From an uncultured Pseudomonadales bacterium (GTDB lineage Bacteria > Pseudomonadota > Gammaproteobacteria > Pseudomonadales > Azotimanducaceae): 58,940 nucleotides of DNA. The translations under genes were made by a program, and so were the position numbers. Below the pieces are notes generated by a model. It was not told where the DNA came from. It worked only from the letters and a program-made list of their open reading frames with translations, and did not search any database. Positions 12,444 through 58,940 of this stretch are shown here, piece after piece. The stretch spans positions 1 to 58,940 of the forward strand of contig CAYGBY010000001.1 of assembly GCA_964348115.1 (NCBI GenBank). The letters run 5' to 3'. The first letter of the stretch is position 1; each line of letters starts with the position of its first letter.

Positions 12444-13112
12444 GTGCGGCCCCTTCGTCTGTGCGTGTTCGTCAAGGCGCCGGAACCCGGAAAGGTCAAG
12501 GGTCGTCTGGCCGTGCGGCTCGGCGCGCGCCAAGCCTGCGCCGCCTATGAGGAACTGGCGGAGCACTGTTTGGCCGCGCTGTCGGCAAGCGCTGCGCCCA
12601 AGGAGCTTTGGGTCGCCGGCGGCGTCGGCCATCGGAAAATTCAGATGTGGGCGCAGCGGTTCGGCTTTCCGCTGCGCCCGCAGCCCGCGGGGGATCTGGG
12701 CGCTAGGATGCTGGCCGCCATCGAGTCCTGCCGTCAGGCGGACCGGGCGGCAATGGTGGTGGGCAGCGATCTGCCGGAGCTGAATGCCGCCTATGTGGCC
12801 CACGCTTGCGCCGCCCTGCGCAGCCATGATGTGGTGCTTGGCCCGGCGGAGGATGGCGGCTATGGGCTGATCGGCATGCACGAGCCTATGCCGGAGCTGT
12901 TTGCGGACATGCCTTGGGGAACGCCGCTGGTGCTGTCGGAGACTAGACGCAGGGCCGCTCGCCTGGGGCTGCGCTTGGCGCAGGCCCCCTTGCTATGGGA
13001 TGTGGATGACTTGGCCGATTGGCGGCGCTTTCGGGCGTTGAAGCGGCGCCTTTGCGGCCAACCCGCATTTCGCGCCGGCGGCAACCTTCAGGATTGCCGG
13101 CCAACGCGCTGA
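12444..13112 (+). CDS. DUF2064/TIGR04282-family glycosyltransferase-like protein
   Basis: 222-aa ORF with a GTG start. The N-terminus LCVFVKAPEPGKVKGRLA is the family hallmark. Confidence 0.65.
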   Translation: MRPLRLCVFVKAPEPGKVKGRLAVRLGARQACAAYEELAEHCLAALSASAAPKELWVAGGVGHRKIQMWAQRFGFPLRPQPAGDLGARMLAAIESCRQADRAAMVVGSDLPELNAAYVAHACAALRSHDVVLGPAEDGGYGLIGMHEPMPELFADMPWGTPLVLSETRRRAARLGLRLAQAPLLWDVDDLADWRRFRALKRRLCGQPAFRAGGNLQDCRPTR

Positions 13113-13549
13113 AAAGGCGCCGCCCTCAGCGCCGCATCCAACGGCTTGGCGCTGGCGCAGCTTGCCTCCTGACGGATGCGCGCCACCATGGCCCGCAGGC
13201 CGTTGCCCCGGGTCTGGCTTAGGTGGCTCAGCAGGTCCAACTGGGCGAACAGTCCCTCCATGTCGAAGGTGCGGATTTCCTCCGGCGGCTTGTCCTGAAG
13301 GGCGGCCAGCACGATGGCTATCAGGCCGCGCACGATCTGCGCGTCGCTGTCGATGGAGAAGTGCATGGTCGCGCCGCGCATCTCCACCACCAGCCAGACT
13401 TGGCTTTGGCAGCCCCGCACTAGGTTGGCCGGGGTCTTGCACGCTTCGTCCAGCGGCGGCAGCGTCTTGCCCAAGTCTATGATGAAACGGTATTTGTCCT
13501 CCCAATCCTGGAAGAAGGCGAAGGCGTCCTGAATGTCGGCAAGCTGCAT
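13088..13549 (-). CDS. sufE: cysteine desulfuration protein SufE
   Basis: FFQDWEDKYRFIIDLGK..L......NLVRGCQSQVWL is the SufE/CsdE signature, including the active Cys. Last gene of the suf cluster. Confidence 0.85.
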   Translation of the reverse strand: MQLADIQDAFAFFQDWEDKYRFIIDLGKTLPPLDEACKTPANLVRGCQSQVWLVVEMRGATMHFSIDSDAQIVRGLIAIVLAALQDKPPEEIRTFDMEGLFAQLDLLSHLSQTRGNGLRAMVARIRQEASCASAKPLDAALRAAPFQRVGRQS

Positions 13550-13559
13550 GGCCGCGCTC

Positions 13560-14084
13560 CTAGTAAAGGCCGAGTTCGAGCTGTGCTTCCTCGCTCATGC
13601 GTTCCCGGGACCAGGGCGGCTCGAACACCAACTCCACCTGCACGTCGGTGACATGGGGCACCTGGCCGATGCGGGCCTTCACCTCATCCACCAACACCGG
13701 CCCCATGCCGCAGCCCGGCGCGGTGAGGGTCATCTGCACCGACACCCGCCCTTCGGCAATGGTGCGCTGGTAAATGAGGCCCAGATCCACGATGTTGACC
13801 GGAATTTCCGGGTCGAAGACGCTGCGCAGGGCGGCGTCCACCTGCGTCGCATCCACCTTGCCATCGGCCGGCGGCTGGAATGCAAGCACTTCCGGCACAA
13901 GCCCCAAGGCATCCGCATCGGCGCTGTCCAACCGGGCCATGTTGCCATTAAAGACGATGGTGTAGCTGCCGCCCAGGCTCTGCGTCAGGGTGACGAAGGC
14001 GCCCTTGGGGATGGCCACCGCATCTCCGGTGGGCACCAGCTTGCCCTGCACGGTGCGGCTGACTGGGAGGATGCGCCTTTCCAT
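13560..14084 (-). CDS. sufT: SUF-system Fe-S assembly protein SufT (DUF59)
   Basis: 174-aa ORF. DUF59 core VFDPEIPVNIVDLGLIY...TLTAPGCGMG, in suf operon context. Confidence 0.75.
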   Translation of the reverse strand: MERRILPVSRTVQGKLVPTGDAVAIPKGAFVTLTQSLGGSYTIVFNGNMARLDSADADALGLVPEVLAFQPPADGKVDATQVDAALRSVFDPEIPVNIVDLGLIYQRTIAEGRVSVQMTLTAPGCGMGPVLVDEVKARIGQVPHVTDVQVELVFEPPWSRERMSEEAQLELGLY

Positions 14085-14531: not shown

Positions 14532-14597
14532 GGTGATTTCTCGCTTGTGGATTGGTTGTCTGGCTTGCCGATGCCTGCACAGGCGCCTCTGGGCGAC

Positions 14598-15809
14598 TTA
14601 CATGACCTTGATGGCCTTCTCAACGCCGATGATGAGCCGCTCCACGTCTTCGGCTGCATTATACAGGGCGAAGGAGGCGCGGATGGTGCCGGAGACGCCT
14701 AGGCGCGCCATCAGGGGCATGGCGCAATGGTGTCCGGTGCGCACGGCGACCCCTTGCTGGTCCAGCAGGGTGCCGAAGTCGTGGGCGTGGCCGCCTTCCA
14801 CCAGAAAGGAGATGATGGATAGCCGTTGCCCGGGTTCGCCGATGATGCGTACGCCGGGCGTCTGTTTAAGGCGGCTGAGGGCTAGGGTGACGAGCCCATC
14901 CTCCCGCCTTAGCAGGTCTTGGCGTGGCAGGGCGCTGAGGTAGTCTATGGCCGCTCCGAAGCCGATGGCGCCAGCGATGTGGGGAGTGCCGGCCTCGAAT
15001 TTGTAGGGCAACTGGTTGTAGGTGGTCCGCTCGATGGCCACGTGCTCGATCATTTCGCCCCCGCCCTGGTAGGGGGGCATGGCCTCCAGCAGGTCAGCCT
15101 TGCCATAAAGCGCCCCAATCCCTGTGGGGCCAAGCATCTTGTGGGCGGAGAAGGCGTAGAAGTCGCAATCAAGGACAGCCACGTCCACCGGCAAATGCTG
15201 CACCGCTTGGGCGCCATCGATGAGCGTCAGGGCGCCTTGGGCCTGGGCGGCTTGAATCAGCGCCGGCACCGGGTTAACCGTGCCCAGCGCGTTGCTGACA
15301 TGGCCGAACGCGGCCAGCTTGGTGCGTTTGCTGAGCTTGGCGTGGAAGTCCGCCAAGTCCAGCTCCCCTTCCGGCGTCACCCGGCACGCCACCAGTTTCG
15401 CGCCGCTGCGCTGGCAGAGCATTTGCCAAGGCACGATGTTGGAGTGGTGCTCCATTTCCGTGATGAGGATTTCGTCGCCTGCGGCGAGGCGGCCCGTCAG
15501 GCTGGACGCCACTAGGTTGATGGCCTCCGTCGTGCCCCGCGTGAAGATGATCTCCCGCCGGTCCGCTGCGCCGATGAAATGGCGCACCTTGTCCCGTGCC
15601 GCTTCCATGGCGGCGGTGGCCTCGTCCGCCAAGGCGTGGGCGGCGCGATGCACGTTGGCGTTGCGCCGTTCATAGTAGCGCTGGATGGCTTCGATGACCG
15701 GGCGCGGCTTCTGGGTGGTGGCGGCGTTGTCCAGATAGGTCAGGGGGGCGCCGTTGACCTGTCGGGCGAGAATGGGGAATTCGCTGCGGATGCTTGCCTC
15801 GTCGCCCAT
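14598..15809 (-). CDS. sufS: cysteine desulfurase SufS
   Basis: 403-aa ORF. PLTYLDNAATTQKP, the PLP lysine region FSAHKMLGPTGIG, and the active-site loop RTGHHCAMPL. Confidence 0.9.
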   Translation of the reverse strand: MGDEASIRSEFPILARQVNGAPLTYLDNAATTQKPRPVIEAIQRYYERRNANVHRAAHALADEATAAMEAARDKVRHFIGAADRREIIFTRGTTEAINLVASSLTGRLAAGDEILITEMEHHSNIVPWQMLCQRSGAKLVACRVTPEGELDLADFHAKLSKRTKLAAFGHVSNALGTVNPVPALIQAAQAQGALTLIDGAQAVQHLPVDVAVLDCDFYAFSAHKMLGPTGIGALYGKADLLEAMPPYQGGGEMIEHVAIERTTYNQLPYKFEAGTPHIAGAIGFGAAIDYLSALPRQDLLRREDGLVTLALSRLKQTPGVRIIGEPGQRLSIISFLVEGGHAHDFGTLLDQQGVAVRTGHHCAMPLMARLGVSGTIRASFALYNAAEDVERLIIGVEKAIKVM

Positions 15810-19805: not shown

Positions 19806-19833
19806 TCACGCTTACTTGCGGGACAGCACACTA
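19779..19833. mobile_element. MITE family C, terminal fragment
   Basis: GGCCAAAAGGGCCACGAATAATCACGCTTACTTGCGGGACAGCACACTA is the reverse complement of the left end of 29346-29510. Confidence 0.65.
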
Positions 19834-19988
19834 AGGAACCTCTGAACAAGTCGTGTTTGCCCAGCACCCCGCCATTTGCGGCGGGAGATGGCGTTGCGGC
19901 CTTGGGAGGGCGACCCGCAGCGCGGTGGAATTCCACAGTCCGCCCGCCGCGGGGCGCCCTTCGGGAGGGCCTAAAGGGCGCGCCAGCT
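19834..19988. mobile_element. MITE family B, left portion
   Basis: Starts with AGGAACCTCTGAACAAGTCG and follows the 42998-43258 copy through GGGAGATGGCGTTGCGGCC and CCCTTCGGGAGGGCCTAAAGGGCGCGC. It is truncated next to the stop of the 20011 gene. Confidence 0.65.
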
Positions 19989-29308: not shown

Positions 29309-29658
29309 AGGAACCTCTGAACAAGTCTGGGAAGCCCAGAGGCGTCTAGTGTGCTGTCCCGCAAGTAAGTGTGATTATTCGTGGCCATTTTGGCCCCCGG
29401 CCGCGTTGCTCCTCCTTGTGTGGGGCCTGCCACAGGGCGTCGTCGCGCCTTGTGGGGCGCCAAAACGGCCTAGCGACTAAAACCCACATACTTGCGGGAC
29501 AGCACACTAGGTGGCGTGATGGCAAGGCGCGGCGAAGCCCTGTGGGCGGGGCCCCACACAATGAGCCGCAACACGGCTCGCCTTGCCATGGCCGCAACGC
29601 CGTCTCCGTCCGCAAACAGCGGGGCGCTGGGCGAACGCGACTTGTTCAGAGGTTCCCT
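29309..29658. mobile_element. MITE family B (inverted orientation, internally deleted) carrying a nested family C element
   Basis: Termini AGGAACCTCTGAACAAGTC (29309-29327) and GACTTGTTCAGAGGTTCCC (29639-29657). The interior is collinear with the reverse complement of 42998-43258, except for the 165-bp insertion at 29346-29510. Confidence 0.7.
29346..29510. mobile_element. MITE family C, full copy nested inside family B
   Basis: Perfect 22-bp terminal inverted repeats CTAGTGTGCTGTCCCGCAAGTA and TACTTGCGGGACAGCACACTAG. A fragment of the same element lies at 19779-19833. Confidence 0.7.
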
Positions 29659-29812
29659 AGTGCGGACGAAGCAGTCCGCCGGACAGGCAACGCGTGGAAC
29701 TTGCACTCCGTCGCCTGTCGCTGGGCGTCCTTGGAGGGAATTGCATGGTAGATTACGGAATGGCCGGGTTGCGGGTGTTTTGGCCGCCGCCCGCACCGGG
29801 AGGGAGACGCCG

Positions 29813-42934: not shown

Positions 42935-42997
42935 GCTGGTCTCCTAGGCTGATTCGGCCAACGATTCCGGCAGCACCTTTGCCCCTGCCGGTATGCT

Positions 42998-43258
42998 GGG
43001 GAACCTCTGAACAAGTCGCGTTCGCCCAGCGCCCCGCTCTCAGCAGCGGGAGATGGCGTTGCGGCCATGGGAAGGCAATCCTCAGAGCAGAGGGCATTCC
43101 ACGGTCCGTACGCCGCGGAGCGCCCTTCGGGAGGGCCTAAATGGCGCGCTGGCTGTGTTGCGGCTCATTGTGTGGGGGTAAGCCACACGGCTTCGCCGCG
43201 CCTTGCCATCACGCCTTTTAGCCTCCTCTGGGCTTCCGGGACTTGTTCAGAGGTTCCC
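42998..43258. mobile_element. MITE family B, full-length reference copy (~260 bp)
   Basis: Terminal inverted repeats GGGAACCTCTGAACAAGTC and GACTTGTTCAGAGGTTCCC. The internal conserved hairpin GCGCCCTTCGGGAGGGCCTAAATGGCGCGC is present. The element is intergenic, between ndk and the acyl-CoA ligase. Confidence 0.75.
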
Positions 43259-43351
43259 TAGTGGACCCGCACTAAGCCGAAATGGCGCACATTATACGCT
43301 TTGGCCACAAAACTTCGGGGCAATTTCAGAACAGCCCACCGTCCGCTCAAT

Positions 43352-48849: not shown

Positions 48850-49233
48850 CTAACGGGCGTCCAGCGCGCCTTCGACAATGTCGAGCAGTTCACTGGTTAC
48901 GTCCGGCTGAAGGGTGGCTGCGCGGGAGAATAGTTCGCCAAGTCCCTTGGCCGAAGATCCTTTGCCCAGCGTCTTCTCCACCAAGGCTGCAATGCGTTTC
49001 CCCTGACGCCGTTGGGCGGCAATGCGCTCCCGGCGACGGCGTTCAACGATTGCGGTAATTCCCGCCAGCCAGACCTGCGCCTCCAGCGCCCGCCTTTGTT
49101 CGACCAACTCCCGGGACCGGCGCAGCACACTTTCCACGAGCCTCGCCAGCGCCCGGTCCTCAGCCAGCACCGCCTTCACCTCGATTGTGGCGAGCCTGGA
49201 GTGCAGTCTGGCAATTAAAGTGCTATCAGCCAC
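48850..49233 (-). CDS. hypothetical Arg-rich helical protein (operon gene G, last gene)
   Basis: The candidate GTG at 49233 shares 1 nt with the TAG of gene F (TAGTG). The alternative ATG at 49266 would overlap F by 34 nt. No family recognised. Confidence 0.45.
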   Translation of the reverse strand: MADSTLIARLHSRLATIEVKAVLAEDRALARLVESVLRRSRELVEQRRALEAQVWLAGITAIVERRRRERIAAQRRQGKRIAALVEKTLGKGSSAKGLGELFSRAATLQPDVTSELLDIVEGALDAR

Positions 49234-50561
49234 TACTTTTCGAGTTGATTGAGCAAACGATCCCACAATTGCCCGGAGCGTTCCCCAGCTTCGTCATGGG
49301 CCCTTTGCTGGCGTTCCAGCATTTTGTCCAAATGATCGCGCTCAGCCCGTTTCTGCTCCTGCTGCCGCTGGGTCTCCGTTTCGACGAGTTCACGCAGGGT
49401 GGCGACGGCCTTGCCGAGGTCGGCGTTGTGCTTGTTGCGGGTGTCCTCAAGCAGCGCGAAGGTCTCCTTCATCTGGGCCAACTCCGCGTCAGCCGTCTGC
49501 GTCCTGGACTGGGAGGCTTGCTCTTGGAACGCCCGCTCCTGGGCGACGATGGATTCGAGCCTCCCTTCAAAGGACGAAACCGTGCTCCGCCACTCGGCCA
49601 GCGCGGCCTGGCGCAGTTCGGACTCGCCCTCATGCCATTTGGCGAAATGCTTCTCGACGATCGTCTTCGTCATTTCCGCCAGCTGCCCGCGCTCAGCCCG
49701 TTTCTGCTCCTGCTGCCGCTGGGTTTCCGTTGCAACGAGTTCGCGCAGGGTGGCGACGGCCTTTCCGAGGTCGGCGTTGTGCCTGTTGCGGGTGTCCTCG
49801 ACCAGCGCGAAGGTCTCCTTCACCCCGGCCAGCTCCGCGTCAACCGCCTCCGTCCTGGACTTGGAGGCCTGCTCCTGAAACGCCCGCTCCTGGGCGACGA
49901 TGGACTCGAGCCTCCCTTCAAAGGACGCAACCGTGCTCCGCCACTCGGCCAGCACGGCCTGGCGCAGCTCGGACTCGCTCTCATGCCATTTGGCGAAATG
50001 CTTCTCGACGATCGTCTTGGTCATTTCCGCCAGCTGCCCGCGCTCAGCCTGTTTCTGCTCCTGCTGCCGCTGGGTTTCAGTTTCGACGAGTTCACGCAGG
50101 GTGGCGACGGCCTTGCCGAGGTCGGCGTTGTGCTTGTTGCGGGTGTCCTCAAGCAGCGCGAAGGTCTCCTTCATCTGGGCCAGCTCCGCATTGACCACTT
50201 GCGTGCTCATCGTGCGCAATTCGGCCAGCGTCTTTGCCCGCCACTCCTGTTCCCGCTGTTCGTACGCAGCAAAGAAACGTTCAAGCCGCTCCGCGAGCTT
50301 CTTGTCAGCTTCGCCCAAATTCGCGCCTGCTTCTTCGCTGGCTTGCGCCAATGCCCTGGCAGTTGTTTCAGCTCCTGCATCGACCCGCTCCCGTACGCTC
50401 ACTAGCAGCTGATGCAGTGCCTGACCAGACCTTGCTGCAACTATCCCTGCGGCTACGGCGATTCCCATCACCACAGCCCAGATGGCAAGAGGGGGATTTA
50501 TGATGGCTAAAGCCGCCGCGGCAACCAGCGGAACCACAGCCCCGAACTCCCAATGCTTCAT
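49233..50561 (-). CDS. membrane-anchored coiled-coil protein made of 117-aa tandem repeats (operon gene F)
   Basis: 442-aa ORF. The N-terminus has two hydrophobic helices (AVVPLVAAAALAIINPPLAIWAVVMGIAVAAGIVAA), followed by 2.4 near-identical 117-aa helical repeats. Its ATG overlaps the TGA of gene E (ATGA). Confidence 0.65.
   Translation of the reverse strand: MKHWEFGAVVPLVAAAALAIINPPLAIWAVVMGIAVAAGIVAARSGQALHQLLVSVRERVDAGAETTARALAQASEEAGANLGEADKKLAERLERFFAAYEQREQEWRAKTLAELRTMSTQVVNAELAQMKETFALLEDTRNKHNADLGKAVATLRELVETETQRQQEQKQAERGQLAEMTKTIVEKHFAKWHESESELRQAVLAEWRSTVASFEGRLESIVAQERAFQEQASKSRTEAVDAELAGVKETFALVEDTRNRHNADLGKAVATLRELVATETQRQQEQKRAERGQLAEMTKTIVEKHFAKWHEGESELRQAALAEWRSTVSSFEGRLESIVAQERAFQEQASQSRTQTADAELAQMKETFALLEDTRNKHNADLGKAVATLRELVETETQRQQEQKRAERDHLDKMLERQQRAHDEAGERSGQLWDRLLNQLEK
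49338..50189. repeat. 351-bp near-identical tandem repeat, ~2.4 copies, in-frame within gene F
   Basis: Repeat units start at protein positions 125, 242 and 359 (AELAQMKETFALLEDTRNKHNADLGKAVATLRELVETETQRQQEQK...). Only a handful of substitutions separate the units. Confidence 0.85.
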
Positions 50562-51226
50562 GTGCCTGTCTCCTCTTCCGTCGGCGCCTGCAGCGTCTCG
50601 TCAATGCGCTGCAGCTGTATAATTAAGGCGTGAATACGCTCCATTTCATTTCTCCATTGGCTCCAAAGTTCTCCGTACAGCTTCCAGAGGTTGGGACGAA
50701 ACACGTCATAAAGCACGATTCCGCCATCCAATTTATCCAGCCAGTCATCGTATTTGTTGCGTTTTTCCGCAAGACGCGCTTCAAGCGCTTTAAGGAAATG
50801 CGTCAGTTCGCGGACAAATTCGTTGCGAAGCCGTTCAGTATAGGCTTCCGTGACCACCCCCTTAACCGCGCATTGCAATAGGTTGAACCGTTTCAGCGGC
50901 TCGGCGGAGGCCACGGCGTCAACCATTGATCGAGTCGCTGCCCGGAAGAGCCGATCTACTTTGGGCTTGTCCAGCAAGGCATTCGCCGGCGGCAGCTTTT
51001 TGCTGTTTCCTTCCTTGAGCGCCTCCCTCAGAATGCCTAGGATCTCGTACACCAATTCCAGGATTTCATCTTGAGCCTCCAATGGCAGCCGCCCCGTCTC
51101 CGCAGCGTCGTCCATCTCCAGGGGCGTAACGGCTGGGAAGCGCTGGCTTTTTGCGAAGGCGTCGCGCCCTTCAAAGCCGGTTAGAAGCCCGATGAATTCG
51201 GACGAATTTCTTGCCCAGATGGTCAT
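50558..51226 (-). CDS. hypothetical helical protein (operon gene E)
   Basis: The ATG at 51226 (MTIWARNSSEF) shares 1 nt with the TAA of gene D (TAATG). 222 aa. No family recognised. Confidence 0.5.
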   Translation of the reverse strand: MTIWARNSSEFIGLLTGFEGRDAFAKSQRFPAVTPLEMDDAAETGRLPLEAQDEILELVYEILGILREALKEGNSKKLPPANALLDKPKVDRLFRAATRSMVDAVASAEPLKRFNLLQCAVKGVVTEAYTERLRNEFVRELTHFLKALEARLAEKRNKYDDWLDKLDGGIVLYDVFRPNLWKLYGELWSQWRNEMERIHALIIQLQRIDETLQAPTEEETGT

Positions 51227-52158
51227 TACGGCCCCACCACCACCCAAGGCCGGTTGCTGTTCTCCTCGAATCTCTCCAGCGCCCGGCCAACTTTTGGCAG
51301 AACTTTTGAGCGCGCCCCTTCATCCTTACTTTCCCCACGCACGAAGGATGCCGCTTTGAAGAGCCCTACGCGAACTGGCGTGTCCTGCCAGAAGTCGGAA
51401 AGCCAACGAATGACCTCTCGACGCCCTATTTGCGCCCTATTGGCGCACCAAACGACCCGGCGGACTTGATGCTTTTGCGGCAATCCCAATTCGGCCGCTT
51501 CTTGGGCCGATTGGGGAAGCGCTTCCAGCTGCGGCCATAGGACGATCCAACGGTTGTGGGGCAGCAGAGGGTTCGGGACCTTAACCGCCACGGTCTGGAA
51601 GTTTTGCTCGACTGGGGCCACCAAAATTTTTGCCGCCGCGTCGGGCCGTAGGGATTTGGCGGAAACAGCGCAGGGCCAACCCTCTTCAAGATTGACCTGA
51701 ACGCTGTGATATTGCGCGCCCTGGGCATCGGGCGATGCGTGGCCGAAAATTAGCAGCGGGCGCTTGGTCGGAAAGACATCCCGGCTAAGGCCAAGCGATA
51801 GAAGGGCATGCTCCAGATCTGGGCGAGACTGGGACAACCAAAGATCGGCCGCCTCCGCAGAGATTCCGATGACATTCCGGTCGTCGTCTGCTGACCCCGC
51901 CTCGCCGTCGTATTCAGTTTCAAACCCCGCCAGCGGATCGTCATCCGACGCCTGGAACGCCCCACTCTCGGCTGTTCCGGCGGCATTTCCACGCTCGTCC
52001 GCTGACCCCGCGGCGGGGTAATCAGTTCCAAATCCAGCCAGCGGGTCATCATCCGGCGCCTGGGGCGCCTCACTTGCTTCGGAAAAGGCCCCTAATTCCT
52101 GCCCCAACTTCTGATGCCTTTTGAGAACTCGTTCCCAAAGGACGGCGCCTTGACTCAC
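51226..52158 (-). CDS. hypothetical protein with duplicated acidic DDDPLAGF motif (operon gene D)
   Basis: The GTG at 52158 overlaps the TGA of the third dynamin-like gene (GTGA). The N-terminal disordered acidic region carries two ~31-42-aa repeats, followed by a ~200-aa C-terminal globular-looking region. No family recognised. Confidence 0.5.
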   Translation of the reverse strand: MSQGAVLWERVLKRHQKLGQELGAFSEASEAPQAPDDDPLAGFGTDYPAAGSADERGNAAGTAESGAFQASDDDPLAGFETEYDGEAGSADDDRNVIGISAEAADLWLSQSRPDLEHALLSLGLSRDVFPTKRPLLIFGHASPDAQGAQYHSVQVNLEEGWPCAVSAKSLRPDAAAKILVAPVEQNFQTVAVKVPNPLLPHNRWIVLWPQLEALPQSAQEAAELGLPQKHQVRRVVWCANRAQIGRREVIRWLSDFWQDTPVRVGLFKAASFVRGESKDEGARSKVLPKVGRALERFEENSNRPWVVVGP

Positions 52159-54497
52159 AACGCCTCCAAGGATGACATTGCGGACTGAAGGGCCGAACAC
52201 ATCTTCTGATTGCTTTCCAGGGCCTCTTTGACAGCTGCTTCCCCCTGCGTCTGTTTTGCCTGCGCTTCCTGCAGCGCGGCCTGAACCTCGGCCTTAATGG
52301 CGTTTACGCGCTCCCGCAGGTGATTCTCAAGTGCTTCATGGGCGGAGTCAAAGCCTGCGCTCACCGCCCGGCGAATATCCGCGAAAAGCGAATCTCCATC
52401 GCGGGAGAGAAATTGACGGCTCAGTTGCGCCATGAGCGCCAACTTGGCCTTGGATGCTTCTTCGTCCCGCTGCAAATTGCGCCGATCCTCCTCCAACGCC
52501 TTTCTCTCCCGTTCCAGGCGCAGGGTCTGCTCTTCCACCCTCTCCAATTCCGTGCGTTTTTCCCGCAGGAGCTGCTCATAATGCCCCTGCCTCAGCCTAA
52601 TTTTCTCCCGCTCATATCCAAGCCTGTGCATCTCATCGTCCAATGGTTTCTTGAGCTTGAGAAACTCCTGACGAACCTCCTCGTTTTCGATTTCGACTAC
52701 TTTATCTGGGTGGAAATAGCCGCCTATAGCTCCCCCTAGGCGCCCTCCCCAGGTTTCAAGGGAAAAGTTTTCGCCAAACTGCTCCATCCCATCCTTTATA
52801 TGGGTCGGGCCCTTCCGGTCGCGCAGCCGATTATTGCGATCGATGATACGGCGATTGTGGTTTTCTATCCCTCTAATGATTTGCGCACCCCGGGGCAGTG
52901 TTTTTAGAAACTTGCCGAATTTCCCGCCGATGGGAATGGGCGCTAAGGTCAAAACCATATCGGCTATCCCTCCTAGCATTCGCCCAGCCTGCTGAAATTC
53001 CTCCTTTCCTTGATCGAGGGAAACCCTATCCATCTGCGGCACATATGTGAGCTTATCGCGCTCCGCCTGCGTAGCGGCTAGCGCCTGTTGAATGCCTTCC
53101 AACTCCTCGGCCGGCGCATGTTTGCGCAATGCCTCAATTTGGCGCAGCAGCTCCTCTCGGGAATGATGCACATCCTCGATATGCGGCAAGTCCTCGTCAG
53201 AGTGGCTGGCAACCCCTCCCTGCGGAAGCTCCTGCAGCCAATCGGTTGAGACCCCCTTTTGCTCAAGGTGTTGGGATGCGACAGTCTGGGCGATTTCGAC
53301 ACCGGCTTGATCGAGTTGCCTTAGGCGATCTTCAGCTGCGGCAACACAGGCTTCCCGCCATTGCAGGACATAGCTGCGAACGGAACTATTGGCGAATCGC
53401 TGCACTTCGTCGCGGATTTGCAATGTGGCGATCTTTTCGGAAATGGCTTGCAGGGTCTCCTGGCCGATCTCGCGCATGTGATTGAATGCTTCAAAACGCA
53501 ATCGCCTACAGCGGTCCTTCAACGTACTGGCGGCATCCCTGATGCCGGCCTCTTGATCGGCCCCTTCCTCTACGATGTCGCGCTCCACGCCCTTGCCTTG
53601 GTCTCTTATGGTCAAGGCATCGGCCTTAAGAGCCGATTGCTTAAGGCGTAGAGCGGACAGTTCGCGCCCAAGTTTTTCCGTTACGCGGCCGCCAAGATGA
53701 TGGGCTATCAATTGCTCGCGGCGTGTCCCGGTCACTTCCGATAAAACCTGCCGAATAGCCGCAATGCCCGTCTCCGCAGTGCTTGAGGTCGGCAATATCG
53801 CCAAGGGCGAGACACCGCGCTCCGCGAGGCGATGGCGGAAGTCAGCGACCACCCGATCCACCGAATCCAGGGGGAGCTGATCAGCCTTTGTCAACGCGAT
53901 CACCACGCTGGCCGAGTTGTCCCCTAAGCTCTCCAAATAGTCGACGTCCGTTTTCCTGCCCGTGCTGGTCGCAGGAATGGCCAGAATCACCACAGGGGCG
54001 GTGGCCGCCGCAGCCCAAGCCCGCCCTTCCAGCTCTGGGGTGTTGGTGTTCATTCCGGGCGTATCCACTAGACTTGCGTTCCAAGTGGCCAACTGCTCGC
54101 TTCCCAGACCAACCTCAAGGCGCGAACCCGCGCGGATTGGCTCCCGCCCGCGCACCAGCGCATCCCAGCGCGCGTCGTCTTCGCTGCACTCTTCCCATTC
54201 TTCAGTGTCGCCATGCACCAGGGCGCGATAGTTGGCTGAAGCGTATTTGACCTCAACCGGGCGCGCGGTGGACTCAAGGACGTCCTGGGGAAAGGTCGCC
54301 AACCTATCCACGCCAAAGATGCGGGCGACCAAGGCGCTCTTCCCGGACCCCATTTCACCAATGACGGGAATGCTCAGGGGCGCTGCATGCGCGGCGCTGG
54401 ACTCGTCCCGCACATAAGCCGCCAACTGGCCCAATCCCGCTGCTTCCAGTATCTCCAAGATCTTCCGCCACCGCTCCTCAAAGCTGGACTCGCTCAT
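52155..54497 (-). CDS. dynamin-like GTPase (bacterial DLP), paralogue 3
   Basis: 780-aa ORF. G1 GEMGSGKS, G3 LVDTPGMN, G4 TKAD. Long charged helical stalk. Hydrophobic paddle-like segment GRMLGGIADMVLTLAPIPIGGKFGKFLK (52899-52982). Its ATG overlaps the upstream TGA (ATGA). Confidence 0.8.
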   Translation of the reverse strand: MSESSFEERWRKILEILEAAGLGQLAAYVRDESSAAHAAPLSIPVIGEMGSGKSALVARIFGVDRLATFPQDVLESTARPVEVKYASANYRALVHGDTEEWEECSEDDARWDALVRGREPIRAGSRLEVGLGSEQLATWNASLVDTPGMNTNTPELEGRAWAAAATAPVVILAIPATSTGRKTDVDYLESLGDNSASVVIALTKADQLPLDSVDRVVADFRHRLAERGVSPLAILPTSSTAETGIAAIRQVLSEVTGTRREQLIAHHLGGRVTEKLGRELSALRLKQSALKADALTIRDQGKGVERDIVEEGADQEAGIRDAASTLKDRCRRLRFEAFNHMREIGQETLQAISEKIATLQIRDEVQRFANSSVRSYVLQWREACVAAAEDRLRQLDQAGVEIAQTVASQHLEQKGVSTDWLQELPQGGVASHSDEDLPHIEDVHHSREELLRQIEALRKHAPAEELEGIQQALAATQAERDKLTYVPQMDRVSLDQGKEEFQQAGRMLGGIADMVLTLAPIPIGGKFGKFLKTLPRGAQIIRGIENHNRRIIDRNNRLRDRKGPTHIKDGMEQFGENFSLETWGGRLGGAIGGYFHPDKVVEIENEEVRQEFLKLKKPLDDEMHRLGYEREKIRLRQGHYEQLLREKRTELERVEEQTLRLERERKALEEDRRNLQRDEEASKAKLALMAQLSRQFLSRDGDSLFADIRRAVSAGFDSAHEALENHLRERVNAIKAEVQAALQEAQAKQTQGEAAVKEALESNQKMCSALQSAMSSLEAL

Positions 54498-56857
54498 CTT
54501 GTAGCCTCCTCGCCTCCCTTTTCAGCAAAAGCCTCATGCTCCTTCTGTAGTTGCGCCGCCTCTTCCTGCAGGCTCGTCAGGCCTTCCAGCGCTTTGGCAA
54601 TTTCCTCCGCTCTGGCATCCCGCTCGCCCTCCTTCTCTTCCTTCAAGGATTTGAGTTTCGCCAACTCTTGATTGCGGCCCTGCAAAGTTGCATCGATATC
54701 CGCCACAGTTTGACCGATAAAGTCATTGGTTATCTCTTGGGTCTGGCTAACAATATTTTCCATGCCGGCGGCTAGGGTTTCCGCCCCCGACTGAAAGGCG
54801 CCAAGCAATTGCGCCCGGCTTGATTCCACAACCCGCTGTTGGGACTTCGCCTTGCTCTCTCTGTAGCGAGCTTCCTCCTTTTCCAAGGCCTGTCGCCGAG
54901 TTTGATTAAGAGATTCCATTCTCTGGGTGCGCGCCTTATCCAATGCCCCCGGATTGCGCTTTGCCCTTGCCTCTTTCACACGTAGGTCGAGTTCAGCTCG
55001 CTTGTCCTTGTACCACTGCTCAATGCGCTTCACTTCTTCGTCATGACGCTTTCGATCTTTGTCATCGGTAACCGTCACCTCGTAAGATTCAATCTTCGGC
55101 CCCAAAAAAATATTTCCGATCACACCAAAAAAACCCCTTCTTTTTCTTTCTCTTTGCCCAATTTCCGTATGAACTCTCAATTCGGGACGACTGCCGAGCA
55201 TCTGCCTTTCCCCAACCCGTTCCTCTTTCAGCTGCTTCACGTTGTCCTGCAGCTCCACGTAGCGATGCTCAGCTGACTCAGCAAGAGCACGTTTTTCCTC
55301 CATTTTCCCCAACTCCAGATCGCCCTTCTCGATCTCCTCCTCGAGGTCCCTGATCTTTGCTTGCGAATCTTCGTCGAACTTAGGCTTTTGCAACGAAAGA
55401 GCGATTTCCGTCACTTCCGGGAGGTCGAAATCCACTTCGTCCAACTCGCTTCGGAGCTGGCTGCGAATCTCTCGAGCCTGTTTACGCAACACGCGACCTA
55501 CAGCGTATTTGAATAGCTGATCCGCTTTCTTATCGAGTGCCGCCAACTTCCTGCCCGGTAGGTTGGCCAGGTGAGCACCTTCATCCCAATTCTCCTTGAG
55601 CGCATCATAAGAGTCGTAGGCGTTTATCTCATCCCTAATCTCCTCCAATTGGGATTTGCGCCTCTCCTCCCAGTCATCTCTCGCTTGCAGCAGCGCGCGC
55701 GACAGTTCTTCGGCCAACTCTTCCGCCCTACCCTCGAGTTCGTGTTTTCGCTCGGCGACAATTCGTGCCGTTTTTTCTATTTCGAGTTCAAGCTTGGACA
55801 GATCAAATGTGTCGTCTAAAACCCCTTTCTGCCGATCTAGTTTGCCAACGCACTTGGCGGCCTCGCTTTGAACGAACGAAAGGGGGGTGTGCAGAAGGTC
55901 ATAACCCTTACCACCACGAAAAAGATACTCCTCGAGTGCATTCTCAAAGGCTTGGATGCCGGACTCCTCAATCAAAGTGTGGCAAAACAGCGGATCCGCC
56001 AACTTATCGCGCTCCTTCTCCGCGAGAATTGAATTCCTCGCATATCCGACACGCCCGAGAAACGCCTTCGCTGCGGATACGCCAAAGACTGGGAGCTTGT
56101 CGGCCGGCTGCCTGTCCACGACATTCCGAATGCCATCCTCCACGCGCTGCAAAACCCGGCCGACCTCGCTTTCATCCACGGTGTCGATTCTGTTCACAAC
56201 AAAGAATAGGCGGCCAACCGCCTCCTCTACGCTTTCAAGGAACTGCCGGTCCGACTGGGTTACCTGGGTTTGCGCGCCAAAAAGAAAGATGGCCGCACTG
56301 CTGCGGTCGATCTGGTCGTTGGTGATCCGAGTGTGGGTTTCGGTTGTTGTATTGGTCCCAGGGGTGTCGACCAGCAGTACGTTGTCCTCCAGGAAGCGCG
56401 ATTCCACGAAGACATCTACATGATCCACCGCGCTGGCCACGTCTTCGAGGCGTCCAGAGTGCCGCGAAGTATAGTCCGAAAGTTCATCAACCGGCACTTT
56501 TTCCTTTTTTCCATCGATAAAATGAACTTCCACATGATCGGGCGACTGGCTTTCCTCCGCCCTTGGGTAGCGAAGGAAATTGACAGTTGCCGTACACTCA
56601 AGTACGTCCATTGCAAGCAATTGCCTGCGCATCATCGCATTCAGGAGCATGGACTTTCCACGCTTCATTTCGCCGACGACCACGACCACGAACTCCTCGT
56701 TCTGAACGGCGTTGGCCCGCTCCTGCAAACTTTGCACAAGACCGCTTCCACCTTCATCGTCCAAGAGCGGGACGACATCCCGCATGTTCTCGGCGGCTCG
56801 GTTCAGCAGCGCAGCCACCTTGTCGCGCAATTCTGCAAACCCTTCCTTTACGTTCAT
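54494..56857 (-). CDS. dynamin-like GTPase (bacterial DLP), paralogue 2
   Basis: 787-aa ORF. G1 GEMKRGKS, G3 LVDTPGTN, G4 NRID. Helical stalk. Paddle-like RRGFFGVIGNIFLGPK (55094-55138). ATGA overlap with paralogue 1. Confidence 0.8.
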   Translation of the reverse strand: MNVKEGFAELRDKVAALLNRAAENMRDVVPLLDDEGGSGLVQSLQERANAVQNEEFVVVVVGEMKRGKSMLLNAMMRRQLLAMDVLECTATVNFLRYPRAEESQSPDHVEVHFIDGKKEKVPVDELSDYTSRHSGRLEDVASAVDHVDVFVESRFLEDNVLLVDTPGTNTTTETHTRITNDQIDRSSAAIFLFGAQTQVTQSDRQFLESVEEAVGRLFFVVNRIDTVDESEVGRVLQRVEDGIRNVVDRQPADKLPVFGVSAAKAFLGRVGYARNSILAEKERDKLADPLFCHTLIEESGIQAFENALEEYLFRGGKGYDLLHTPLSFVQSEAAKCVGKLDRQKGVLDDTFDLSKLELEIEKTARIVAERKHELEGRAEELAEELSRALLQARDDWEERRKSQLEEIRDEINAYDSYDALKENWDEGAHLANLPGRKLAALDKKADQLFKYAVGRVLRKQAREIRSQLRSELDEVDFDLPEVTEIALSLQKPKFDEDSQAKIRDLEEEIEKGDLELGKMEEKRALAESAEHRYVELQDNVKQLKEERVGERQMLGSRPELRVHTEIGQRERKRRGFFGVIGNIFLGPKIESYEVTVTDDKDRKRHDEEVKRIEQWYKDKRAELDLRVKEARAKRNPGALDKARTQRMESLNQTRRQALEKEEARYRESKAKSQQRVVESSRAQLLGAFQSGAETLAAGMENIVSQTQEITNDFIGQTVADIDATLQGRNQELAKLKSLKEEKEGERDARAEEIAKALEGLTSLQEEAAQLQKEHEAFAEKGGEEATR

Positions 56858-58940
56858 GCCAATTCTCCTTGGTCTTCGCAGCGAAACGTCTCCATCGCTC
56901 TTGAAAGTGTTTCCCGAACGCCTTTCTCCCTGGTCCTTTCAGCATCCTTCGCACGAGCCTCAGCCCGCGTACGCTTAATTTGATCCGACAGCAATTTATG
57001 CTGTCGATCTGAAGCATCCCTAAATCGCGCGTCGAAATCCAGTGAAATTTCCTCCAGCATTCGCTCAGCTCCCTGTTCAAGTTCACCGGAAAGTGCGTTG
57101 AAAAGACTTTCCAGCTCCCTTCGAGCGCCAATCTTAAGCTGTGCTTGCCGGGTTTTGATCCCGGACTGGTGATACCTTTCCCTTTCCTCCGCGAAACGCG
57201 CCTCCTCCCGCCTCAAGCGCGCTTTGGAGTTGTCCAGATCTCGCTGCAGTTTCTGGAGTTCGCCGCTGGCTTTTTGCGTTTCTTTCGGCACATTTTTGAG
57301 GGGATCGATTTTTTGGTCAAAATCGGCAACCTTCTTATTCGCCTTTTCGTACTTGCGTTCCCACTTCTCCACGCGGCTGTAGTCTTTGCGGCTCCGTGTC
57401 ACCTTGACCTCCTTCTCTTTCGGACCGAGTAACCAGTCCAGGAAGCCTGTTCCACCACGCTTTACCTTTATCTTCTCTTTTGCAGTGTAGTATGTAACCT
57501 TAGGAGTTGGCTTCGGCCCGAGTTGCGTTCGGTTTCCTACCGCCTGTTTGCGTTGCGTTCTGAGGTTCTCCAGCTGAACGGACTGCTTTTCAAGCGCTTC
57601 GACCTTTGCCTCCCCTTTTCGCAAAGCCCGCTCCCAGTTTACAACGTTCCTCTTCAGCCTGCCGATCTTGTTTTCGCGGCGGCTTAGCGCCTTACTTGTT
57701 TTGTCCGCCTGCAGTTTAATGGGGGCCATATCCAGTTTTACGGAAGCCAACCCTTGCCGGTCCAGCGCGGAGACCTGACCGTGATTTTCGAGGTCATGGA
57801 CCAATCGATTCGCCGATGCCTTCAGCAGCCGATGGATCCTATCAAAAACAGGTTTTTCCAAGCTTTCGTTTAGGCAATCAGACACCGCCTTTTGCGCTAC
57901 TCTTAGGTCGTCCCGCTCGATCAGCTTAGCCTCCAACCCATCCACAAAGCTCCTCATCTCCTGTTCAATGCCGGGCTGCCTTTCGCTTAGAAAGCTTTGT
58001 AGGATGCCCAGTTCCCCCATCAGGGTTTTTCGCGCCAATCGGAGAATGTTTTCTCCTGTGCGCTGTAGGTCCTCCGCCGTTTCATCGAGACGCGCTTCTG
58101 CTGCTTCCAGCTCCTTTGAAACACTCCTATCGAATTCCGCTTCGCGTTTTTCGATACGGGCGATCTCCGCTTTGCAAATTTCCCGCAACAGTGACAACGG
58201 ACGCCTTTTTAGAGCGGAGGATCGGCCCTTGAGAACGCCTTTATTCAGCTCCTCCAGGTCTTCGATGAAGCGATACTCTTCGTCCTCCAGTTCCTCCTCG
58301 CCCTCAAGGTAAGCGCCGCCCTCGAAAGCGCGTTTGGCGGAAAGGGTGTAAATGTCCTTGTAGTCAAGTTGGGCAACGCGCTTGTGAAGTTCCTCCCTAA
58401 AGTGCTCAAACCCATTGCCGCTCTTTGCGTATTGGTCGCACTTGTTGATGACGACCAGGACGCGGTTGGCGATGGAACGCGCTTTCTTTATTAGCTCGAT
58501 ATCGCTCTGTCGTCCAATCCCATTGACAGGAACCACGACTATGGTCACATGGGACATGCCGAGCTGGTGTATGCTGCGCGCCTCCAATTCCGTCTTACCG
58601 TTGAGTCCAGGGGTATCCACGAGCACGAGGCTGGTCTTTGGCTCCTTGCTTTCCGCGGGCAGCACAATTTCCACTCTTTCAATGGCCTCCCAGGCATCCT
58701 CGTCAAGGGTGGTCCGGGCGCTGACTTCGGAAAGCGGCACGGCGTCCGTGCCGCCGTTTGCATAAACAACTGTGGCCGGTCTATCTTCATCGAGTTGCTC
58801 CTCGTCGCTCCACCTAACCCAGGTGGGCACGGCCGTACACTCGAATAGATCGGTGGCAAGCAGGTTTTCTCCGATGAATGCGTTTAGGAGGGTGGATTTT
58901 CCCGTGTTGAACTCGCCCATCACGGTGATGCAAAGGCGTT
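56854..58940 (-). CDS. dynamin-like GTPase (bacterial DLP), paralogue 1; N-terminus outside the window
   Basis: The reading frame is open to the window edge (...RLCITVMGEFNTGKSTLLNAF). G1 GEFNTGKS, G3 LVDTPGLN, G4 NKCD. K/R/E-rich stalk. Paddle-like GGTGFLDWLLGPK (57421-57459). Confidence 0.8.
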   Translation of the reverse strand, partial: RLCITVMGEFNTGKSTLLNAFIGENLLATDLFECTAVPTWVRWSDEEQLDEDRPATVVYANGGTDAVPLSEVSARTTLDEDAWEAIERVEIVLPAESKEPKTSLVLVDTPGLNGKTELEARSIHQLGMSHVTIVVVPVNGIGRQSDIELIKKARSIANRVLVVINKCDQYAKSGNGFEHFREELHKRVAQLDYKDIYTLSAKRAFEGGAYLEGEEELEDEEYRFIEDLEELNKGVLKGRSSALKRRPLSLLREICKAEIARIEKREAEFDRSVSKELEAAEARLDETAEDLQRTGENILRLARKTLMGELGILQSFLSERQPGIEQEMRSFVDGLEAKLIERDDLRVAQKAVSDCLNESLEKPVFDRIHRLLKASANRLVHDLENHGQVSALDRQGLASVKLDMAPIKLQADKTSKALSRRENKIGRLKRNVVNWERALRKGEAKVEALEKQSVQLENLRTQRKQAVGNRTQLGPKPTPKVTYYTAKEKIKVKRGGTGFLDWLLGPKEKEVKVTRSRKDYSRVEKWERKYEKANKKVADFDQKIDPLKNVPKETQKASGELQKLQRDLDNSKARLRREEARFAEERERYHQSGIKTRQAQLKIGARRELESLFNALSGELEQGAERMLEEISLDFDARFRDASDRQHKLLSDQIKRTRAEARAKDAERTREKGVRETLSRAMETFRCEDQGELA

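Follow-up and report, generated by a model that had tools for sequence, protein, structure and literature searches.

Bacterial dynamin-like proteins (DLPs) normally occur as pairs that are encoded side by side and are thought to be hetero-oligomeric (PMC6104087, PMC4159319). They are known mainly from such pairs, and their membrane recruitment and the control of their assembly are largely unexplained. For Cj-DLP1/2, a membrane repair function has been speculated (PMC6104087). In the Leo system of enterotoxigenic Escherichia coli, LeoB and LeoC each supply half of a single active DLP, LeoC retains the P-loop, and the membrane anchor is carried by one component, as the C-terminal transmembrane (TM) segment of LeoC (PMC4159319). 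DLPs can also protect bacteria against phages, for which DynA of Bacillus subtilis (PMC8844932) and Eleos (bioRxiv 10.1101/2022.05.11.491447) are the precedents. Here we analyze a locus in a stretch of 58,940 nucleotides from an uncultured Pseudomonadales bacterium (contig CAYGBY010000001.1; the whole stretch is called the window below). On the minus strand of the window, at positions 48850–58940, seven consecutive open reading frames (ORFs) encode three DLPs (DLP-A, DLP-B and DLP-C) and four further proteins, named D, E, F and G. Our reading is that D–G are dedicated non-enzymatic anchor, adaptor or regulator subunits of a mobile heteromeric triple-dynamin cassette, and we put its probability at about 0.55.

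Like Nostoc BDLP, Cj-DLP1/2 and B. subtilis DynA, the three DLPs of the cassette have a Dynamin_N domain with intact G1, G3 and G4 motifs. With the paired bacterial DLPs they share long helical parts, a neck and a trunk, and a short hydrophobic tip. Their genes follow one another in a single operon, the usual arrangement of bacterial DLPs (PMC6104087). The cassette differs from the paired systems in having three paralogues and not two, in having four constant non-DLP partners, which are not described for those systems, and in carrying its TM anchor on a separate protein. A multi-gene dynamin operon on an accessory island is also a feature of LeoA/LeoB/LeoC and of Eleos, and the Leo system likewise has a separate membrane anchor on one component. 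The PADLOC model LeoBC weakly matches the G domains of DLP-A (1.2e-11), a likeness to Eleos, and of DLP-C (0.0018). However, PADLOC gave no LeoA match in the cassette and nothing for DLP-B, D, E or G, so that the LeoA plus LeoBC composition of Eleos is not found here. Unlike LeoC, protein D lacks a P-loop, and its sequence does not mark it as a piece of a DLP. Thus, the DLPs are of a known kind, while the fixed architecture of three DLPs with four partners, and the four partner families themselves, appear to be undescribed. Literature searches found no description of the cassette or of D–G.

In eukaryotes, Mff, Fis1 and MiD49/51 are membrane-anchored, largely helical or pseudo-enzyme proteins that recruit and regulate a cytosolic dynamin-type GTPase. 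By functional analogy, similar roles would fall to F (anchor and arm) and to D (pseudo-enzyme). Neither in sequence nor in fold are F and D related to these eukaryotic proteins, and the anchor of F is N-terminal. D in its predicted fold resembles the GTPase itself and not a nucleotidyltransferase.

Organization and Distribution of the Cassette

An earlier reading made from the sequence alone (the sequence-only reading) had placed four accessory ORFs downstream of the DLP genes. All four exist on the minus strand, in the order and with the sizes given there. DLP-A runs from beyond the window end at 58940 to 56854, DLP-B (787 amino acids) occupies 54494–56857, and DLP-C (780 amino acids) occupies 52155–54497. 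They are followed by D at 51226–52158 (310 amino acids from a GTG at 52158, with an alternative start at 52161), E at 50558–51226 (222 amino acids from an ATG), F at 49233–50561 (442 amino acids) and G at 48850–49233 (127 amino acids from a GTG). The short overlaps that had been noticed between the genes are present at every junction: 4 nucleotides (nt) at A/B, B/C, C/D and E/F, and 1 nt at D/E and F/G. DLP-C is translationally coupled to D. In the ORF listing D, E and G are longer, as the earliest possible start is taken there; we preferred the starts that produce overlaps. The chosen starts of D, E, F and G match independent gene calls in related loci. In particular, the GTG at 52158 is the gene-call start of D in L007, the cassette of a near-identical strain, and the 4-nt overlap between C and D is kept in other loci. 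A scan for promoters and terminators within the operon gave no more sites than shuffled sequence, and no convincing terminator was found in the spacer between G and RecQ. In our best explanation, the seven-gene cassette is transcribed and translated as one unit.

The distribution of the cassette was searched in 5.8 billion clusters, together with an exhaustive hidden Markov model (HMM) scan of 1.84 billion representatives. Homologues of D form 60 clusters at 90% identity; all are full length, 38–51% identical and unnamed. E has 32 clusters of homologues, and G has 52. The exhaustive HMM search with the profile of the D C-terminal domain found 16 proteins. A scan of species-representative genomes gave six loci, in five metagenome-assembled genomes of Candidatus Latescibacterota and one of Spirochaetia. 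Using tblastn with the seven window proteins, we found A-B-C-D-E-F-G collinear in five loci (Latescibacterota) and C-D-E-F-G collinear in the Spirochaetia copy (L008/L004). Gene calls agree on this order in L007, L009, L010, L018, L019 and L020. Altogether, the arrangement DLP-DLP-DLP-D-E-F-G with overlapping or abutting genes is seen in the window and in L007, L001/L009, L002/L018, L003/L019, L005, L006/L020, L010, L013 and L015. The short contigs L011, L014, L016 and L017 carry partial cassettes that are compatible with the same order.

The cassette can be followed to remote relatives. The gene products are 764/786/814/305/242/598/127 amino acids long in the L013 cassette (GC 35%) and 797/787/793/316/218/463/136 in the L015 cassette (GC 25%). 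Remote homologues of D from the exhaustive HMM search (E 1e-10 to 4e-5) keep the N-terminal helix, an acidic arm with repeated short motifs, and the C-terminal domain. The E profile built from close relatives recovers the ORFs at the E position in L016 (2e-16) and L013 (3e-9), and the corresponding G profile recovers the G-position ORF of L013 (4e-9). Moreover, DLP-A, DLP-B and DLP-C of the window are reciprocal best matches of their counterparts in distant cassettes (A with A, B with B, C with C). These one-to-one matches place the divergence of the three DLPs ahead of the spread of the cassette.

Hosts of the cassette span 25–70% GC, and it is found in at least four chromosomal contexts, three of them in Latescibacterota alone, with different flanking genes. 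No conserved gene upstream of A or downstream of G was found among the loci compared. Given the fixed internal order, this means that the unit consists of exactly seven genes. Wherever the contig is long enough for checking, D lies directly downstream of the third DLP gene and is followed by E, F and G. Among the loci examined, no homologue of D was found away from DLP genes, and scattered homologues without DLPs, which would speak against a link between D–G and the DLPs, were not observed. Thus, D–G behave as obligate partners of the DLPs, in agreement with the partnership that the sequence-only reading had suggested.

The same reading held that D–G belong to no recognizable family. At the sequence level this stands. 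Searches against Pfam, NCBIfam, PADLOC and PHROGs gave nothing above threshold for E, F and G or for D, where neither Dynamin_N nor another GTPase profile was found, and the remote D–G homologues of L013 and L015 gave nothing above threshold in the family libraries. None of the 60 D clusters and none of the 32 E clusters has a Pfam domain, and the profiles of D and E had 0 matches among PDB sequences. At the level of structure it may need refining for D, whose C-terminal domain has a predicted dynamin-type G fold in a model of moderate confidence. In line with the sequence-only reading, the Pfam, PADLOC, NCBIfam and PHROGs scans revealed no signature of a nuclease, protease, NADase or kinase. 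When D, E, F and G were aligned by hhalign with each other and with full-length DLP-A, DLP-B and DLP-C, all probabilities were at most 1.3%. By sequence, D–G thus cannot be recognized as pieces of DLP stalks or G domains. Each of the four represents a new, sparsely populated sequence family.

Protein D as a Probable Pseudo-GTPase

Protein D consists of an acidic N-terminal part and a C-terminal region of about 200 residues, as originally described. It begins with a conserved short helix, LWERVLKR, followed by an acidic arm. Residues 1–105 contain 22 D+E versus 6 K+R and are predicted to be disordered past the N-terminal helix. The arm carries the motif DDDPLAGF(G/E)T(D/E)Y twice, at residues 37 and 73, and repeated short motifs of the DDP[FL]AxF type are typical of it; remote homologues have L..LE..IFG in place of DDPFA.F. 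These DPF-like motifs presumably resemble the motifs of eukaryotic endocytic adaptors. The idea that the number of acidic motifs in D tracks the number of repeats in F was rejected, since D of L007 is identical to that of the window and its F has two fewer repeat units.

The C-terminal part of D is an α/β domain of about 205 residues with the segments RPLLIFG, VPNPLL, RWIVLWP, VRRVVWC and PWVVVGP. We built an AlphaFold2 (AF2) model of D on 36 sequences. The model is poor over the acidic arm; its confidence score (predicted local distance difference test, pLDDT) is 70–90 in the core, with block means of 71–91 for residues 110–260, which is moderate to good. In a Foldseek search against the PDB, the top 17 matches of this model were all G domains of the dynamin superfamily, with probability 1.0. 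The best match was MxB (4WHJ, E 4.2e-05), and the 17 include stalkless MxA, MFN1, IniA, Drp1 and AtDRP1A, as well as the dimer of dynamin-1 G domain and bundle signaling element (G-BSE), Cj-DLP, MFN2, Mgm1 and BDLP. Ras and Rho GTPases rank below the dynamin family in this list and have a low probability. Against viral structures (BFVD), Foldseek found nothing significant for D, only weak Ras-like matches.

Despite this predicted fold, D appears to have no nucleotide-binding site. The G1 P-loop GxxxxGK[ST] (Walker A) is absent from D of the window, from 35 aligned close homologues and from 6 remote homologues. The strand equivalent to the P-loop strand is followed by FG(S/H)xRSxL or similar. 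Neither G3 (DxxG) nor G4 ([NT]KxD) was found in the D homologues, and the conserved Asp and Gly are absent at the required positions; the nearest look-alikes in D are RWIVLWPxL and VVWCVNRxQ. Since every GTP-binding motif is lacking, D reads as a likely pseudo-GTPase. On the strength of the model, we consider it probable that D has a GTPase-like α/β fold of the dynamin type that is unable to bind nucleotide. The model argues for a resemblance to dynamin G domains, which may or may not reflect homology.

Several observations weaken the assignment of a dynamin-type fold to D. It comes from one model of moderate confidence, with an overall pLDDT of 57. The Foldseek TM-scores are 0.33–0.37 when normalized to 311 residues, with a root-mean-square deviation of about 7 Å; rescaled by us to the domain of about 206 residues, the TM-score is about 0.5. 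The predicted secondary structure of D shows no clear counterpart of the helix that usually comes after the P-loop. In addition, the D profile had no match among PDB sequences, and hhalign of D profiles with the G domains of DLP-A, DLP-B and DLP-C gave a probability below 1%, even with remote members added.

Protein F as a Proposed Membrane Anchor with a Variable Arm

Two N-terminal hydrophobic helices followed by repeats had been seen in F, and both features were confirmed. Residues 6–44 form a hydrophobic helical hairpin with an NPP turn and basic residues flanking both sides. This hairpin is the only segment in all seven proteins that passes the 19-residue hydropathy threshold. The claim that F supplies the only TM anchor thus holds for segments of TM length and has to be limited in another respect, as DLP-B and DLP-C have short hydrophobic tips of their own. 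After the hairpin come 397 residues with not a single proline, 65% of which are A/E/L/K/Q/R/M. This part contains an internal tandem repeat at 49337–50189 on the minus strand, with a unit of 351 nt (117 amino acids), 2.4 copies and 92% matches; the two full 117-residue units are 89% identical. F ends in a conserved C-terminal tail (…RSGQLWDRLLNQLEK).

The homologues of F are 208–598 amino acids long and have the same architecture. The N-terminal hairpin is present in all of them, the middle is variable, and the related C-terminal tail reads …(Q/E)LW..(L/M)(I/L)…. In the copies of the Latescibacterota group, the turn of the hairpin is conserved and contains proline. F of L007 (208 amino acids) is equal to F of the window minus exactly two repeat units, and in other cassettes F has 322–598 amino acids. 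Thus, the length of the helical arm is evolutionarily labile.

The long helical arm on a membrane-embedded part is reminiscent of the ZorA tail of Zorya. Unlike ZorA, F does not have the MotA/ExbB channel domain: in place of a membrane domain of the MotA/ExbB type there is only the two-helix hairpin. ZorA itself was rejected as a candidate for F. Its models gave 13–18 bits (18.4 for NCBIfam antiphage_ZorA_3) versus a cut-off of 250, and the similarity is compositional and covers only the helical arm. Weak matches to JetC were also limited to helical arms and were judged to be chance. On the plus strand opposite F, at 49185–50405, lies a repetitive antisense ORF of 406 amino acids, which is a by-product of the high-GC tandem repeat and has no sign of being a gene.

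Proteins E and G

E had been described as all-helical, and the prediction agrees: the AF2 model (pLDDT 72) is an up-down bundle with two helices of about 45 residues. The N-terminal segment of E is conserved (MTxWAKNxSEF..G..RD) but predicted to be poorly ordered, and the first 45 residues are modelled with low confidence. Conservation combined with low confidence is compatible with a segment that would fold on a partner. A search with this fold gave only generic helical bundles (best E 0.15) and nothing significant. The NACHT N-terminal helical domain NNH7 was considered for E and rejected as chance, since it matched 1 of 29 homologues with E 0.038 and 14.6 bits versus a cut-off of 27. One homologue of E (P0075, 353 amino acids) has the C-terminus of D fused to E and runs into the F frame; this probably reflects a frameshift or an assembly artefact and not a true fusion.

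G is basic and helical, as was proposed. It contains 24 K+R versus 17 D+E, one proline and a RRRRERIAAQRRQGKR stretch, and its helical character is predicted from composition. Among D–G it is the best conserved protein (56–76% identity), with the invariant core RELVEQRRxLEAQVWLAGITAIVER. DUF3040 was discarded for G as a chance match (5 of 24 members, best E 0.009). In the decayed cassette of L005, at 12653–13902, about 890 nt are inserted into G and divide it.

The Three Dynamin-like Proteins

DLP-A, DLP-B and DLP-C score 58.9, 91.7 and 33.6 bits with Dynamin_N, above the Pfam gathering score of 27 bits used as the cut-off. As the G1, G3 and G4 motifs are also readable in their sequences, all three are bacterial DLPs. 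The most divergent of them is DLP-C, which matches Dynamin_N with E 5e-08 (Pfam) and has GEMGSGKS (G1), DTPG (G3) and TKAD (G4). In sequence searches of the PDB, the best matches of the cassette DLPs were BDLP (2J68) and Cj-DLP1/2 (5OWV), and DLP-C had no match; the closest solved relative of DLP-B is Nostoc BDLP. Short hydrophobic tips that resemble a paddle are found in DLP-B (GFFGVIGNIFLG, residues 575–586) and in DLP-C (IADMVLTLAPIPIG, residues 511–524).

DLP-A is cut by the window end. Its frame is open to the last position without a stop (58924–58940, …RLCITVMGEFNTGKS), and about 51 residues at its N-terminus lie outside the window; the complete DLP-A of the sister locus L007 has 745 amino acids. 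An ORF of 689 amino acids that begins at the GTG at 58923 was rejected as an artefact of the window edge, since the frame runs off the window end.

Strain Variation and Mobility

We compared the window with L007, which lies on a 4.7-Mb contig. The flanks are 99.8% identical and the operon is 96% identical. The differences are concentrated in one tract, from the middle of DLP-A to the last third of DLP-C (window 52500–57900), where identity is 77–97% per 300 nt. In this tract, synonymous divergence reaches 0.3–0.39 beside stretches that have none. In A, B and C, non-synonymous divergence peaks near the hydrophobic tips, and the ratio of non-synonymous to synonymous change (pN/pS) stays below 1 even in the variable DLP segments. 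D and E have zero amino-acid changes between the two strains. Judging from this mosaic pattern, the tract looks like an imported recombinant segment.

The GC content falls from ~0.65 in the rest of the window to 0.54–0.59 over the cassette (window 50000–58940), and the same region has a strongly negative GC skew. The low GC is consistent with horizontal acquisition. In the Spirochaetia locus L008, the second DLP gene is separated from the third by insertion sequence (IS) genes (DDE_Tnp_1_4), and DLP-C is truncated. The cassette of L012 consists of many short ORF fragments, through decay or perhaps through errors in long reads at a coverage of 11x. Taken together, the low GC, the several insertion sites, the IS-broken copy in L008, the fragmented copy in L012 and the recombinant tract indicate that the cassette is accessory and mobile.

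Proposed Mechanism and Alternative Explanations

We propose that the short helical hairpin would hold F in the cytoplasmic membrane, so that its two termini are on the cytoplasmic side, and that F would project a helical arm whose length is set by the variable number of 117-residue repeats. The conserved C-terminal tail of F may recruit the soluble parts. D would descend from a dynamin G domain, or mimic one, while being blind to nucleotides, and would occupy or block the G–G dimer interface of one DLP, most plausibly of its coupled neighbor DLP-C. Three active G domains and one dead one would make two G–G pairs, and the GTP-driven assembly could be gated in this way. The motifs of the D acidic arm may provide multivalent weak binding to a basic partner, for which G or a DLP stalk are the candidates, and E and G would act as small helical connectors. 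The output would be membrane tethering, sealing or remodelling by a DLP hetero-oligomer at sites defined by F. The role of such a cassette would most likely be envelope protection under attack, by phage or membrane stress, and not core cell biology. This mechanism fits the published hetero-oligomer view of bacterial DLPs and extends it.

Some of our own results do not favor this mechanism or the assignment of D–G as DLP subunits. A crude test for periodic hydrophobic residues revealed no clear heptad pattern in the part of F after the hairpin, and for this reason we call this part of F a helical arm and not a proven coiled coil. In the remote cassette L015 only D is matched significantly, and E, F and G were matched by position, size and architecture. 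Finally, the neighbors of the cassette are mainly metabolic genes and not defence genes.

A bolder version of this proposal is that the cassette is the first dynamin machine from a prokaryote to bring its own adaptors. F would be a scaffold anchored in the membrane and tunable in length, D a pseudo-GTPase derived from dynamin that gates G-domain pairing and carries multivalent acidic-aromatic motifs, and E and G the connectors. Such a machine would be the bacterial counterpart of the adaptor-regulated organelle dynamins, possibly an immune system in which membrane remodelling is the only effector. We regard this version as speculative and rather unlikely. In any case, the cassette offers a defined, testable set of candidate DLP regulators: a separate membrane anchor, what is probably an inactive copy of the G domain, and two further small proteins. 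Should D and the G domain of a DLP truly pair, D would lend itself to studies of how GTPase activation depends on the G–G dimer. If the cassette truly protects against phages, it would widen the small group of defences that act on membranes, as opposed to those that destroy nucleic acids or NAD.

With regard to the biological role, it is possible that the cassette is an anti-phage system of the abortive or population-level kind, with several subunits and related to Eleos (LeoA/LeoBC) or to B. subtilis DynA, although we hold this only tentatively. Here D–G would serve to detect infection or to place the DLPs, and the effector step would consist in sealing or remodelling the membrane; the sequence-only reading likewise took membrane remodelling as the effector activity in the case of a defence system. 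This explanation concerns the role and is compatible with D–G as subunits of a DLP cassette. The patchy and rare distribution, a GC below that of the host, and several insertion sites with some decayed copies agree with it. So do the mosaic tract between near-identical strains, with the fastest amino-acid change at the DLP tips, and the variable number of F repeats. The weak LeoBC match of DLP-A (1e-11) and the phage protection by DynA and Eleos point in the same direction. On the other hand, proteins B–G match no PADLOC system and a LeoA match is absent. Also, pN/pS is below 1 even in the variable segments, and no recognizable defence island was found around the examined cassettes, whose neighbors are mainly metabolic.

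The ordinary metabolic neighbors would fit instead a housekeeping or stress-induced machine of membrane dynamics like IniA/IniC, Cj-DLP1/2 or Streptomyces DynA/B, which would serve repair, vesicles or division, with D–G as lineage-specific adaptors and no role in phage conflict. The DLPs are indeed closest to BDLP and Cj-DLP1/2, and within sub-clades of Latescibacterota (L009, L018, L019) the cassette occupies the same chromosomal place. However, we find this explanation doubtful. The cassette is extremely rare, with about 60 clusters at 90% identity among 5.8e9, and its GC is atypical. It occupies different sites in related genomes, and some copies are IS-broken or fragmented, which is unlike a core function.

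The N-terminal two-helix hairpin of F, the only such segment in the cassette, raises the idea that F is itself the effector. It would be a membrane-hairpin permeabilizer, like the abortive-infection effectors with two TM helices, and the DLPs, D, E and G would restrain or trigger it. It is true that no other effector domain was found by Pfam, PADLOC or NCBIfam. Nevertheless, most of F consists of a long helical arm that ends in a conserved C-terminal tail, an architecture typical of scaffolds, the hairpin turn is very short (NPP), there is no link to known pore formers, and the similarity to ZorA is confined to the helical arm (18 bits versus a cut-off of 250). An effector role of F is therefore improbable.

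That D–G are spurious or hitch-hiking ORFs with no functional link to the DLPs, for which only the absence of database names would speak, is refuted by synteny and is highly improbable, given the conservation at the protein level and the invariant order across very distant hosts, the overlapping start and stop codons, and the strong constraint on D and E between strains, with zero non-synonymous changes.

Intergenic Repeats in the Window

Outside the cassette, the window contains an intergenic repeat of ~130–260 nt that resembles a miniature inverted-repeat transposable element (MITE). Its copies lie at 42996–43261, 29343–29473, 29574–29660 and 19831–19983; they are 88–95% identical, and one of them is inverted. 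Further copies of the MITE-like repeat are present in L007, at 2096–2485, in the 1.1-kb gap upstream of DLP-A, and at 14540–14748, by RecQ.

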